Shown here: one piece after another, positions 1 through 6,000 of the stretch
How the letters are laid out: each line of letters opens with the position of its first letter
Position numbering within the stretch: the first letter of the stretch is position 1
Assembly (NCBI RefSeq): GCF_001677475.2
Contig: NZ_CP015229.1
Direction: 5' to 3' (one strand)
Origin: Escherichia coli
Lineage (GTDB): Bacteria; Pseudomonadota; Gammaproteobacteria; Enterobacterales; Enterobacteriaceae
Length of the DNA: 64,000 bases
Position numbers: made by a program

Positions 1-3000
1 ATAAGCCATCGGGAGAGCAGGCGGTGCGCATAGTCTCGTCACGATAGATGATCGGGGATTCAGTAACATTCACGCCGGAAATGAACTCAAACAGGGCTCT
101 GGCGTCGTTCTCGTACTGTTTTCCCCAGGCCAGTGCTTTAGCGTTAACTTCCGGGGTCACTCCGGTGCAGACCTCAGCCAGCAGGGTGTGGAAGTAGGAC
201 ATTTTCATGTCAGGCCATTTCTTTCCTGAGCGGGGTTTTGCTATCACGTTGTGAACTTCTGAAGCTGTGATGACGCCGAGCCGTAATTTGTGCCACGCAT
301 CATCCCCTTGTTTAACAGTTCTCACGTCGATTCCTGTACGTTGCAGGATAATGTCAGGAGTCATGCTGCCACCTTCTGCTCTGCGGCTTTCCGTTTCAGG
401 AATCCAAGAGTTTTCACTGCTTCGGTCTGCGTCAGTTCTGATGATGCGCGAATGTCGCGGCGAAGTATCTGGGAACAGAGCGGCAATAAGTCGTCATCCC
501 ATGTTTTATCCAGGGCGATCAGCAGAGCGTTAATCTCCTGCATGGTTTCATCGTTAACCGGAGTGATGTCGCGTTCCGGCTGACTTTCTGATGCGGTATT
601 TTCGACAATGCGCTCGGCTTCATCCTTGTCATAGATACCAGCAAATCCGAAGGCCAGACGGGCACACTGAATCATGGCTTTATGCCGTAACATCCGTTTG
701 GGGTGCGACTGCCACGGCCCCGTAACTTCTTTGCCTTCGCTGGTTTTGAATGGTTCGCGGCGGCACTCATCCATCCACTCGGTAACGCAGATCGGATGAT
801 TGCGGTCCTTGCGGTAAATCCGGCATGTACAGGATTCATTGTCCTGCTCAAAGTCCATACCATCAAACTGCTGGTTTTCATTGATGATGCGGGACCAGCC
901 ATCAACGCCTACCACCGGAACGATACCATTCTGCTTATCAGGGAAGGCGTAAATCTCTTTCGTCCACGGATTAAGACCGTACTGGTTGGCGACGATCAGC
1001 AGCGCGATGAATTGCGCATCGCTGGCATTGCCTTTAAATGCTGTCTGGCGAAGAGTGGCGATCAGTTCCTGCGGGTCGACAGTATCCATGCCGACACGTT
1101 CAGCCAGCTTCCCGGCCAGCGTTGCGAGTGCTGTACTCATTCGTTTTATACCTCTGAATCAATATCAACCTGGTGACGCGCAATGGTTTCAACCATGTAC
1201 CGGATGTGCTCCGCCACGCGTTCCTGAAATTCAACATCGTCATCAAATGCGCGACTGATTGCCTGTTTGCTGGCACCGTGGCGTTGCAAATGGTCGATGC
1301 AGAGCGATTCAAACAGGTGCTGGGGCAGACCTTTTTCCAGGTCGTCCGCCAGTTCCGTTTCTTTTTCTTCGCGAACGATCTTCTGGTAGTGGCGTGACCA
1401 TGCCAGCTCTTCAATGCGATCAAAAATCGGGCATGTGCTCATCATCTGTTACCCCAAAATTTTCAAGTTTGTTTGCGATCATCATTGCAATACCCGGAAT
1501 TAATGGCGCTGAGGCTATACCTGCAGGATTCGCACATAAACCGTAAACCGCCGCAATCACCACTTGTCTTTTCCAGTCGAGTTTTTCTAATGATGAAGCT
1601 GCTGCTTCGCCAGTTTCATCACTGCAATCGCGATGCGGATCGCTGCCAGCATTCTCCTTGTGAGGATGTTCAGCGCCTTCCATTTTCTCCGGCTCATTTT
1701 CCCGAACTTCAACCTGATTCTCGTCATCGAATGTTTCCTGATATATTGCGTCGCCCATCACCGCACCACAGTCAGGGCAGTTATCCCCGCCAGACTGACC
1801 GCAGGCATTGCAAACTTTTTCTACTTCCTGTTGCGCCACTGGTTCAGGCTGTTTCGTTTCTGGCTCGTTTTGTAACGCATTTGGGCTGTTTTGTTCCGCT
1901 TTCTGGTCGTTCTGTTCCGATTCTTGTTGGTTCTGGTTCACTGAATCGCGGGTTTCAATCCCCTTCACCCATTTCGGATCATTCGGGTCGCTAATCCCCT
2001 CAACAAATTCACCACGTGATGCAGCAAGCCATCGACAGGATTTTTTGATGGAATGTTTTTCCGGGCTTCATGGAGTTCTGCCCGCAGTTCTTGATATTTC
2101 GCATCAACAGAATTTACCTGTGACTGAGCATCCAGCGGCTGCGTGTCCTGATGATGTTCAGTTGCGTCCGGTTCCATTGTTTCAGCCTCTCCCTGTTCAT
2201 CTGCCGTTGTTCCAGATGGTTGCGGTTTTTCTACATCATCCTGTTTTCCTTCTTCTGTTACACGCTGCGGCATCGGGGCAGAGGAACGACCGCAGGCAAT
2301 ATCCACGATTTCCGGATCAGGGTTGGCATGATCAGTTTCAGTCAGTACTTTGTTCAGATATTCAGTGACGTGCGCGGGGGTGACCTCGATCCCAATTGGT
2401 GCTTCTTTCACGGACGCAACCACGATGGCGCGGGAATAATCCAGCCCGCCAGGCATGGTGATGAATTTGTCGCGGAAAACAGAAAAGGGCGGTTTATTTT
2501 CAGCGATAATTTCCTCAATGCGTTTAGCGTGTGCCGGATGAAGGTTATAGATGTCCACGTCCATTGAACGGGCAAGTACGCCAGTGGCTACATCGCGTGC
2601 CAGTGACGTCAGATCGTGGACGAAACCTTCGCCGCGATCGGTGAGGTTCCCGCCGCCAGCATTAGCACCGGAAGCCGTGCGAGTGATGCGTGAAACACGA
2701 TTCCCTTTCCTCCATTCTTTTGTCAGAAGACCGCGATCAATGTGTTCGGTATCCAGCCAGGCTGAAATGAAATTCTTAAATTCATAGGGCTGATGTTTTT
2801 TCGTGATAGAGAAAACTGCCTTAATTGCATCAGTCAGGCGGAGCAGGGCGGCATTATCCAGAGTTGTCGGTTCTGCCATGCCGCGTATGGCCAACAGCAG
2901 ATTCTGGACATAGCTGTTTTCCTGATCCATCTCAAGAGCAGTAATGTGTTCGCGTTGTTCACGGGTGGCATGATGCAGGTATTTCCGATCCCCGGCCGCA

Positions 3001-6000
3001 TACGTAAAAATGTGCAGAAGACGCTGAGTGAACCGCAAAGTGGCTACAGAGACTTCACAATCCTGGCAATCCCCGTGGGCGTCTGCCTGCGCGTTTTCTT
3101 CCTGGCCTCCCGTCAGTTTTTCAGTTTCCTGAGCACTGTCCTGATAGTGAACGTCGTCTGGCGTTGCTCCCGGTTTTAGTTCCCAGGTCATGGAGTCTTT
3201 GCTGAGTTGATAGCGTTCACTCCAGGTAAAATCGATCTCACCTTCAGGGGGAAGGTCATTAACGACAGGAAAATTTGTGGCAACAGCTTTAAAATAGTTG
3301 CTCAGTTTTTTACCTGACTTAACGATCAGGTAGTCCAGAGTGGCACAGGTCGATTCAAAATCGTCACTTGCCCATAGGACGACGTCAGGTTCACCGGATG
3401 ATTTTTTCGCTTTTCGTAACAGGAAGAGTGGTTTTGTGCTCATTGTTTTTTAACCTCAACTCAGATTAAAATTACTGCGAGTGATGAATAAATGTCCCAG
3501 GTTCTTCACTCAGGCCTGCACGTTGTGCAGGCTTTCTTTTTTCAGATTTCACCTTTTAATTTCATTGCAATCAGAGTTGCCAGAAATCCGGCTTTTTTTC
3601 TGCGGGCAGATTCTTTCCGATGTGAACCAGACTCATTTTTGTGACACCTTCATCAAGTGTTTTTACGTTGCCTGATGGGCCGTCAATATCAACCACAGTG
3701 AATGGGGTTTCTTTATTTTCTGTTTTAATCACGTAGCCAATACGCTTTCCTTCCAGATTAACCTCGTGAACAATGTCATCGGTAGTTACAACAGTGACTT
3801 CATAATTGGTAATCATGTTTTTCTCCTTAATTAAGGTCGAGCGAATTCCTGCCATTTCTGGCATAAATTCAGTTTCGAATAGTCAATTAATTAAAGTTCG
3901 TGTGCCATCTGGTCTTTTTCGGCACAAGCTTCACTGCAATATTTTCTCGGTTCGTCTATAGATAAAGTCCCGTGCATGAAGTGAAGCATTCTTTCAATAG
4001 CTTTGCTTTCTTCAACGTCTTTTTTGCAAAGGTGGTAAGCACATTTTATTTTCTTAGTCATCACCATGACTCCGCCTTTACAGGTAAACCATCACGACCG
4101 AGGAAGACTTTAATCATGCGGTCAGTAATGCATGTTTTTGTGGTCAGGTTACGAATATAAAGCTTTCGCTTTTTAATATTGTTTGCCGAGGCAATATATG
4201 TCCGGCCTTCATGAAGAACATAATCGCCAGGAGTCACACACTGACGTGGTATTTCATCAGTTCCGAAGTGATGAGCAATCATAATTATCTCCATTTTTAC
4301 AAATGAACTTTGTCGATGCTGTGCCTGGTGCCTCCAGGTGACGTTAACCAGTTAACAATTAACGCCGGATAATCCACCCATAACACAGATGCTTTTAACT
4401 GTTCCGCGTGCGCTTAGCCGCATTCACCGCATCACAAAATTCACTTTAAAAAGGGCGGACATCAGCCGAACTTCAAGAAAAAACTGATGCTGCTAGGACT
4501 ACACACAGCAATGTTGTTATTCACAACCGGAAGCGCACGGTCGAAGAAATTTAACGACAAGCCTTCTAAGGGAAAAACACCTCCTCCGTGCGCCTTCGTG
4601 TTGTATGCCTGTCTTTTTACCACTTCAGGCTCGGTGGTATACTGGAGTTCTCACACAACCAGTAAGGAATTGCTTATGCCTATTCAATCTCAACACAAAA
4701 ATATTGATTATCTTTCCGCCAGATTAGAGGCTACCGCGCTTGTTCTTGAAGAACTTGTTAAACTTCTTACGCCAGAGCAGCGTGAAAAACTGAATCTGGC
4801 AATTGCCGGGCGTTGTCCGGGCGTGAAAAATGCATCTCTCAGGAATAGAAATTCTCCCGCATATCAATTATTACAGTTCATCAATGATGACGTCGGCAGC
4901 AGCGATTAATTTTTCTAATGCCTCTTCGACATGATAATTGTATGGTTGTAGTGACCTGAGATCTGTAATTGCATCAGCCAGGTTTCGTGCCATTACGGCT
5001 GGTGCGATTTTTTTTGCTACTGATACCCGGCTGGCGAGTTCCAGTGCGAGACGTGCCTGCCCTGGAGTTAGCTCTCTTTCCTTTGCCATTGTTGATGCCT
5101 GTACAGACAATTCATACGCCAGACAAAATACAGCATTATTAGTTTCTAGCGGGTCAATACCCTGAGTAAATGTCATCTTATCTCTCCCCTTAACGCCGGG
5201 TGGCGGAACTAAAACCTACAGCGCCGTGCTGTTCTTGATAGAAATATTAGTAAAACGGATATTTTAAGTCAACAGCATGGCGTATAATATTTTGATTTGG
5301 TAACTATGTAAATGTTTTTTCAAGGGAAAAATATTAGTTATACAGCTGATTTGCAGAAGTTATGGCACAAAAAAAACCGACTAAGACGTCGGTTTTTTTT
5401 TGTTGTGGATGGGGTAGTGAGCGGTGGCTACTGGTTACGTTTCTTTAGTGCCAGCATGTTCTCGAAGGCTTCCTCGTAGAGCTTGTTTAGTCCACGTAGC
5501 TGGTTAAGGAGTTTGGCTTTTTCTGACGCAGGTAGAATCTCGAAGAGGTTAAGTAACTCTGCCTGTTCTTCATTGACCAGCCTCCATCCTTTGCCTGAAA
5601 AGCTATCATCATAAGTATCTGATGATCTTACATAATTCATTAAGTCTTTAAGGTCTTCTCGAATGTCCTCTGGTTTTACCTTTAACAGAGCCGCAAATTT
5701 TAGCGCAGCGTCGGTATTTACCGGTATCTTGCCGTTCAGATACTGGCTAACGGTGCCTTGAGATTCGAATCCCAACAACTCAGCCGCCAGCTCTTGAGTC
5801 AGCTTCAGTTCTTTTTTTCTTGCATTCCATGCGGCTTTTAAATTCTTGCTCGCTTCTGGAGTTGCAATCACTTCGCGTGTTTTTTTCATACATAGAGTTT
5901 ATTTGTTTTACCAATATTATCAAAGATAGTCTGACTATTGATCTTTAAGATTAGTGGGGCTAATATTTGCTCGAGGCATAACGTAGAAGGTTGGCTATGA

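Follow-up and report, generated by a model that had tools for sequence, protein, structure and literature searches.

Composition of the locus

The stretch of DNA analyzed here (the window) comprises 64,000 nt of Escherichia coli contig NZ_CP015229.1 (assembly GCF_001677475.2), and the subject of this report is a gene of the recE family in the prophage early-left operon at its left end. The gene order in the window is kilR-ydaE-racC-X-gam-bet-exo, where X stands for the recE-family gene; racC lies immediately upstream of X, and the start of gam overlaps the 3′ end of X by 23 to 26 nt. An initial annotation, made from the sequence alone, had listed three open reading frames (ORFs) of 492, 182 and 81 amino acids (aa) and had placed them between kilR and gam in an accessory region of the early-left operon. 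ORFs, location and character of the slot are all borne out: the ORFs lie on the minus strand, the smallest being a 97-aa ORF that gives 81 aa from a well-placed ATG at 3816, and ydaE also lies in this interval. Its view that the 492-aa protein bears no recognizable motif did not survive profile searches: ORF492 matches the NCBIfam model NF007259 (exodeoxyribonuclease VIII) over residues 1 to 471 (E 1e-215) and PHROG 607 (E 4e-194). Residues 2 to 125 of ORF182 align to positions 491 to 600 of the same RecE profile, and the two fragments score 719 and 177 bits against an equivalog cutoff of 1269 bits. Rather than two of three independent proteins, as had been proposed, ORF492 and ORF182 are thus fragments of one frameshifted RecE-type gene. 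Consistently, window positions ~1597 to 4400 are 92 to 95% identical in nucleotide sequence to recE-racC-ydaE-kilR of phage Rac-SA53 and its Rac-like relatives. The initial annotation had held that homology to a housekeeping phage function would speak against a new one; such homology exists, to a recombination exonuclease family, yet of RecE the locus has no more than the noncatalytic part.

One gene split by a 10-bp deletion

Among complete genomes, the closest is that of E. coli OkiPb01695, whose locus is 99.5% identical to the window over 4.1 kb. This locus occupies the Rac attachment site, beside ttcA, and has the order intR-xisR-ydaC-ralR-exo-bet-gam-X-racC-ydaE-kilR, the same as in the window, with X as a single coding sequence of 677 aa (WP_464291785.1). 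Base-by-base global alignment of the two loci places a 10-bp deletion (CCGATAAGTT, coding strand) at window position 2029/2030, directly after codon 471. Codons 1 to 471 of ORF492 are native and, a single substitution apart, encode residues identical to those of the intact homologue; they cover the N-domain (residues 1 to 105), the conserved helical core (130 to 400) and the start of an acidic linker. The final 21 codons are out of frame, up to the TGA. ORF182 is colinear with residues 498 to 677 of the intact protein, and from 2029 onward the native frame has no stop until its end. Its presumed start, the GTG at 1968, is the internal codon Val-498, which the TGA of ORF492 overlaps by chance, and no Shine-Dalgarno sequence is found 5 to 10 nt upstream of it. 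The 4-nt TGA/GTG overlap, taken earlier as an argument for real and co-expressed genes, therefore exists because the deletion frameshifts a 677-aa gene. On this alignment, window positions 1420 to 3443 are identified as a single recE-family gene that is now broken into ORFs of 492 and 182 aa.

Related loci point the same way. Translation of 12 of them revealed an uninterrupted ORF of 665 to 690 aa in 10, and the 12 showed neither a regular separation of the two ORFs nor, in diverged relatives, an independent, conserved start of the 182-aa ORF preceded by a ribosome-binding site. Intact proteins of 649 to 677 aa make up at least 15 clusters. The same gene carries a different frameshift in strain 13E0780, where it is divided into 375 and 300 aa. 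The exact 492-, 182- and 81-aa products are found together on 21 contigs, which come from different samples and from separate assemblies (NCBI and Logan), and this recurrence indicates that the split allele is real. An uninterrupted ORF of ~500 to 730 aa is typical of the family defined by the C-terminal domain described below (CANPA); the window copy, with its 492 + 182 aa, departs from it. We thus classify the window copy, from its reading frames, as a pseudogene of a nuclease-less RecE-N/CANPA family; most likely it has lost its activity, or at best retains part of it. The 492-aa piece still encodes the folded N-domain and core, parted from the linker, the Cys4 motif and the CANPA domain.

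Two intact 671-aa CANPA-type genes, in the loci L015 and L017, are labeled pseudogenes by RefSeq/PGAP ("incomplete; missing C-terminus"). Our translations show their ORFs unbroken through the CANPA domain into the overlap with gam; the label arises because the comparison is made with full-length RecE. The name "RecE family exodeoxyribonuclease" is likewise misleading for proteins devoid of a nuclease domain.

Shared and missing parts of RecE

In the intact homologue, the sole Pfam domain found is PF06630 (Exonuc_VIII; E 1e-66, residues 2 to 182). The PD-(D/E)XK nuclease domain PF12684 has no Pfam match in the 677-aa protein, whereas it is present in canonical RecE relatives (883 to 1056 aa); in other relatives (820 aa), its place is taken by a DnaQ-like exonuclease domain, PF16473. 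Divergence from canonical recE sets in right after the linker ending in DCSDETGE, and similarity ceases at window positions ~1599 to 1605. The alignments thus locate the exchange point in the SDETGE linker, which in RecE leads into the nuclease domain, and the intact alleles encode the noncatalytic N-terminal ~600 residues of RecE joined to a CANPA end, with a very acidic overall composition.

The gene shares with Rac recE its operon position after kilR-ydaE-racC, and residues 1 to ~600 of its product, comprising the Exonuc_VIII domain, core, acidic linker and Cys4 motif, are 90 to 98% identical to RecE alleles. Unlike RecE, it lacks the PF12684 domain (K-12 residues ~564/606 to 866; PDB 3H4R), which is the only part of RecE with demonstrated activity, ends in a CANPA domain, and is frameshifted. 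Furthermore, recT would be expected directly downstream, whereas the window has gam, bet and a lambda-type exo there. By its gene content, the prophage is Rac-like, with lambda-type gam-bet-exo replacing recT and the RecE nuclease domain. Homologues of Gam, Bet and Exo directly downstream also recall the lambda Red module. In lambda, however, gam is preceded by kil and cIII, whereas in the window and in the Shiga toxin (Stx) phages 75/02 Stx, POCJ13 and PhiR5_2 a nuclease-less recE-family gene lies before it and overlaps it.

Proteins of this kind have been touched upon before. Nuclease-less "RecE-2" proteins are mentioned in the Rec modules of lambdoid phages, with roles given as not known (Genome Res 2025, PMC12315714). 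RecE-2 and the window gene have in common the missing nuclease domain, the place in the early-left operon and a role called unknown. The article terms RecE-2 "distantly related", whereas the window gene shares >90% identity with Rac RecE in their common part. We infer that the window gene belongs to the RecE-2 class, to which the article devotes one sentence.

A conserved C-terminal domain in place of the nuclease

The tail that takes the place of the nuclease is 58 aa long, contains the ~45-aa CANPA domain, and overlaps gam with its last codons. The domain lies at the extreme C terminus, with the consensus LTYxQQLTIAALQGLCANPA-x5-DDIPxMAxxLA and with A14, A15, G18, N22 and P23 invariant in the alignment. 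A library search returned 259 representatives of 50%-identity clusters; among the 84 representatives of at least 400 aa, which were examined for this feature, more than 20 end 35 to 43 residues after the motif (L/M)C(A/S)NP. Over the 35-codon CANPA core, the ratio of nonsynonymous to synonymous substitution rates (dN/dS) against Stx-phage alleles is 0.05 to 0.07, with synonymous sites near saturation. These values place the CANPA domain under strong purifying selection. A homologue of 682 to 690 aa lies directly upstream of gam-bet-exo in the functional Stx phages 75/02 Stx, POCJ13, PhiR5_2 and phiSTEC1589-Stx1c; the tail of the Stx-phage homologues is 70 to 76% identical to that of the window, and the linker preceding it is unrelated. 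That the tail is read-through junk was rejected on its conserved C-terminal position in diverged homologues and its low dN/dS.

The initial annotation had attributed to ORF182 a Q/E-rich start, a four-cysteine motif and a hydrophobic end, all of which are present, although the cysteine pairs are spaced by seven residues and not by the nine that it gave (CxxC-x9-CxxC). The Kyte-Doolittle maximum over 19 residues of the tail is 1.6 in the E. coli lineage, borderline with respect to the transmembrane threshold, and 0.4 to 0.65 in diverged homologues. We rejected a membrane anchor as unlikely because this hydrophobicity is not conserved; AlphaFold2 predicts three short helices for the tail. Searched against PDB sequences, the CANPA profile found no meaningful match, and in a set of 5.8 billion proteins it found only 11 short fragments, revealing no other architectures.

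Predicted structure, acidic linker and Cys4 motif

An AlphaFold2 model of the intact protein, built with 82 homologues, has an alpha/beta domain and a helical domain, both predicted with high confidence, followed by a mostly low-confidence linker and the tail (Table 1). The linker, 219 residues long, carries a net charge of -34 and the whole protein one of -50; the isoelectric point (pI) of the core is 6.5. The Cys4 motif in the linker gave only weak Pfam zinc-ribbon matches (E 0.1 to 2.5), and its predicted local distance difference test (pLDDT) scores are 49 to 58. The fold search that the initial annotation had suggested returned only members of the RecE family from AFDB50, no PDB match, and none at an E value below 0.1 in BFVD. 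A PDB sequence search with the family alignment yielded a single marginal match to 3H4R, the RecE nuclease (E 0.004), which comes from the minority of full-length rows in the alignment.

Relatives: exchanged domains and genomic contexts

Among the 82 homologues, the RecE-N module is fused to the PF12684 nuclease in 18, to DnaQ-like PF16473 in 13 and to RecT in 2; the remainder have no recognized nuclease, a coiled coil or another tail forming the C terminus of some. The DnaQ-like fusions include P0038 (in locus L020), P0121, P0134, P0135 and P0265; the prophage that carries L020 lies near rspB, the Qin site. P0124 (703 aa) is an apparent RecE-N::RecT fusion, with 528 N-terminal residues 77% identical to the query and a RecT-like C terminus, and could be a nuclease-domain deletion or a gene-calling artifact.

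Exchange also affects the other end of the protein. The conserved core (query residues ~220 to 410) relates the intact protein to 19 CANPA-type representatives by BLASTP (E 1e-22 to 1e-64), and many CANPA-type proteins start with YdfE_N (PF27430; YdfE_C, PF27432; both named for YdfE of the Qin prophage) instead of Exonuc_VIII. YdfE-type proteins such as P0198, P0205, P0215 and P0227 share this core, the CANPA end and a position before xis/int; the ~220 residues at their start (YdfE_N) bear no relation to the Exonuc_VIII N-domain. The YdfE protein of K-12, encoded by a Qin pseudogene truncated by IS2, has no direct BLASTP similarity to the window protein and is linked to it through intermediates only. 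Diverged CANPA-type genes, mostly with YdfE_N/YdfE_C Pfam matches, occur in the loci L008 to L012, where they are the last large early-left gene and are followed only by a small ORF, excisionase and integrase. This small ORF, of 67 to 80 aa, overlaps each of these five genes (DUF1187 in L011). Another relative, in locus L013, is accompanied by gam, recT-family and yqaJ-family genes, as in the window. In the operon type of the Stx phages, the place of racC, between kil and the recE-family gene, is held by an ORF of 128 aa that is unrelated to it and has a CxC...CPxC motif at its C terminus.

A truncated RacC upstream

The 81-aa product matches NCBIfam PRK09790 (E 4e-50; 167.8 bits against a cutoff of 171 bits). 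Its residues 1 to 74 are identical to those of the 91-aa RacC of OkiPb01695 and differ by two substitutions from RacC of Rac-SA53. Alignment against these two loci and a third (L004) uncovered a 1-bp loss (T8 to T7, positions ~3592 to 3598) that shifts the frame at codon 75, so that the last 17 residues of RacC (AGFLATLIAMKLKGEI...) are replaced by PDFWQL and the product has 81 aa instead of 91. The T7 allele co-occurs with the recE-family frameshift on the 21 contigs, hence two adjacent early-left genes are damaged in this lineage. In a published screen for blockers of the retron toxin RcaT, RacC had the strongest effect, and the authors described it and recE as a blocker-trigger pair (Bobonis et al., bioRxiv 10.1101/2020.06.22.160242). 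The window ORF resembles RacC in residues 1 to 74 and in its place just upstream of the recE-family gene, and differs from it in its truncated C terminus. Its sequence thus identifies it as a truncated RacC, an already described anti-defense protein. The idea of an undescribed defense or anti-defense function, put forward for all three ORFs, fits the 81-aa ORF insofar as RacC is the published RcaT blocker; this member is neither new nor complete.

Neighboring genes

Features of the window, of the intact homologue and of related loci are compiled in Table 1. YdaE (58 aa) has four cysteines (C9, C14, C44 and C48) and a Pfam match to YdaE (PF27493), plus a weak match to the RPAP2_Rtr1 zinc finger; its gene overlaps the kilR stop by 7 nt and lies just beyond the stretch that the initial annotation had singled out (1420 to 3864). 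Two overlapping ORFs in opposite orientation lie between kilR and the repressor gene; their Rac-SA53 counterparts are annotated rac10 and rac11, hypothetical proteins. In K-12 Rac, the matching slot is occupied by sieB. An Rfam scan of window positions 1 to 7000 gave zero matches, and a promoter and terminator scan of positions 1000 to 6000 gave counts not above those of shuffled sequence. No PADLOC-DB family matched the intact protein, RacC or YdaE at an E value of 0.1 or below, in a library that covers defense rather than anti-defense proteins.

TABLE 1 Coordinates of features in the window, of predicted domains in the intact 677-aa homologue, and of genes in related loci
Feature	Position	Strand	Basis or remark
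exo	extends past left end of window	-	after bet
bet	361-1140	-	after gam
gam (host-nuclease inhibitor)	1146-1445	-	PHROG 259 (E 5e-52); RefSeq annotation of the OkiPb01695 locus (L003)
recE-family 3′ fragment (182-aa ORF, GTG at 1968)	1420-1968	-	ORF listing; native frame
CANPA domain core	1453-1575	-	whole tail-specific segment, 1420-1598
Cys4 motif, CxxC-x7-CxxC	1768-1812	-	in acidic linker; kept in canonical RecE alleles
recE-family 5′ fragment (492-aa ORF)	1965-3443	-	ORF listing
97-aa ORF	3571-3864	-	ORF listing
racC, truncated, 81 aa	3571-3816	-	ATG at 3816 with AAGGAG upstream; NCBIfam PRK09790
ydaE	3891-4067	-	NCBIfam YdaE_coli (E 8e-25)
kilR	4061-4294	-	FtsZ inhibitor, PRK11354 (E 4e-48)
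140-aa ORF	4487-4909	+	
101-aa ORF	4871-5176	-	
Alpha/beta domain	residues 1-105		AlphaFold2; pLDDT >93 (1-100)
Helical domain	residues 130-400		AlphaFold2; pLDDT >93
Linker with short predicted helices and Cys4 motif	residues 401-619		AlphaFold2; mostly low confidence
Tail, three short helices	residues 620-677		AlphaFold2; pLDDT 66-80
128-aa ORF, Stx-type locus L005	6263-6649		
128-aa ORF, Stx-type locus L006	5694-6080		
128-aa ORF, Stx-type locus L007	5716-6102		
Diverged CANPA-type gene, L008	4021-5586		
Diverged CANPA-type gene, L009	5001-6821		
Diverged CANPA-type gene, L010	1170-3032		
Diverged CANPA-type gene, L011	4611-6809		
Diverged CANPA-type gene, L012	5001-6806		
Intact 671-aa CANPA-type gene, L015 (NZ_CP074756.1)	1513-3342		labeled pseudogene by RefSeq/PGAP
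Intact 671-aa CANPA-type gene, L017 (NZ_AP042480.1)	1501-3336		labeled pseudogene by RefSeq/PGAP
DnaQ-like fusion P0038, L020	2571-5033		

Discussion

We consider it highly probable that a decayed RecE-N/CANPA gene in a Rac-like prophage accounts for the locus, with an adaptor mechanism as the conjectural part of this explanation. Reviews call the function of the RecE N-terminal region unknown, and they report that full-length RecE, unlike the nuclease domain alone, gives efficient linear-linear recombination. Given this phenotype and the repeated fusion to three kinds of DNA-processing enzyme, we tentatively propose, at rather less than even confidence, that the RecE-N module is a noncatalytic adaptor in the processing and recombination of phage DNA ends. 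The module is joined to RecT, to a DnaQ-like exonuclease or to a PD-(D/E)XK nuclease, depending on the phage; in the lineage of the window it ends in the CANPA domain, and lambda Exo would supply the nuclease in trans. The CANPA domain would probably be a partner-binding or oligomerization module. Several observations weigh against such a mechanism. No recognizable rec gene or annealase gene lies near the CANPA-type gene in L008 to L012, and the DnaQ-fused gene of L020 is located between racC and xis/int, with no annealase gene. Judged from its net charge and the pI of its core, the protein lacks a basic surface of the kind that would suggest DNA binding, and the PDB, AFDB50 (beyond the family itself) and BFVD offer nothing informative for its fold. 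PMC12315714 assigns RecE-2 proteins no known role either.

A different function for RecE-N/YdfE-CANPA proteins may be envisaged, namely that of a host-takeover or anti-defense factor independent of recombination, such as an acidic decoy for a host DNA-binding protein or nuclease, to which nuclease fusion would be secondary. It would suit the strong acidity of the protein and of its linker, the homologues that are the last large early-left gene in the rec-less prophages L008 to L012, the constant neighbors racC (retron-toxin blocker) and kilR, and the swapping of N-domains among alleles (Exonuc_VIII, YdfE_N and 2013C types) that is typical of arms-race genes. We nevertheless regard it as rather unlikely: the recurrent fusions and the linear-linear phenotype point to DNA-end metabolism, the protein resembles no known DNA mimic or inhibitor in structure, and PADLOC gave no match, though its scope makes this last point a limited one. 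The more specific version, in which a core fold with no PDB or BFVD relative acts apart from recombination as an acidic decoy or anti-defense factor and the PD-(D/E)XK, DnaQ-like and RecT fusions are all secondary, is unlikely as well, and slightly more so. If it were true, that function would naturally be looked for in the intact relatives, where the module stands alone.

As to the state of the window copy, the split allele could still be functional through a tolerated gene fission, with the 492-aa protein working alone and the Cys4-CANPA piece made by termination-reinitiation. Two observations speak against inactivation and for this scenario: the allele persists across many isolates (at least 21 contigs from different samples), and both domains that AlphaFold2 folds with high confidence are whole in the 492-aa fragment, the break falling in a helix flanked by disordered linker. 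The overlapping stop and start would, in principle, also allow reinitiation. However, the 21 contigs may represent one clonal prophage lineage, the frameshift in racC of the same lineage suggests decay of the operon, the different frameshift of 13E0780 is what sporadic inactivation would produce, and all other relatives have kept the CANPA domain attached, under purifying selection. We therefore judge functional fission unlikely and retain inactivation of a single gene as the most likely reading of the window copy. That the three ORFs (492, 182 and 81 aa) are separate genes, translationally coupled and of undescribed function, is very improbable; gene callers do list the pieces separately on the 21 contigs and the 4-nt overlap does exist, but the latter was made by the deletion in what is one ORF in most related loci, the GTG is an internal valine codon with no properly spaced Shine-Dalgarno sequence, and every piece strongly matches a known family. 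Sequencing or assembly errors in genes that are intact in the organism deserve next to no credence, for although the racC lesion is a homopolymer change at a typical error site, a 10-bp deletion is atypical for reads and recurrence of all three products in independent NCBI and Logan assemblies led us to reject this origin.

Collectively, these results make the window locus a decayed copy of already annotated genes (the RecE family and RacC), whose apparent coupled ORFs of unrecognized type are an artifact of frameshifting. The wider family bears on a small and old puzzle, the role of the N-terminal two-thirds of RecE, a region that reviews describe as needed for efficient linear-linear recombineering. 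The RecE N-module exists as a stand-alone gene with a selected C-terminal domain of its own, has at least four different C-terminal partners, and also occurs in rec-less prophages. Its stand-alone form, varied partners and rec-less contexts together provide a clean genetic handle on the function of this module, which is better studied in the intact alleles than in the window copy.

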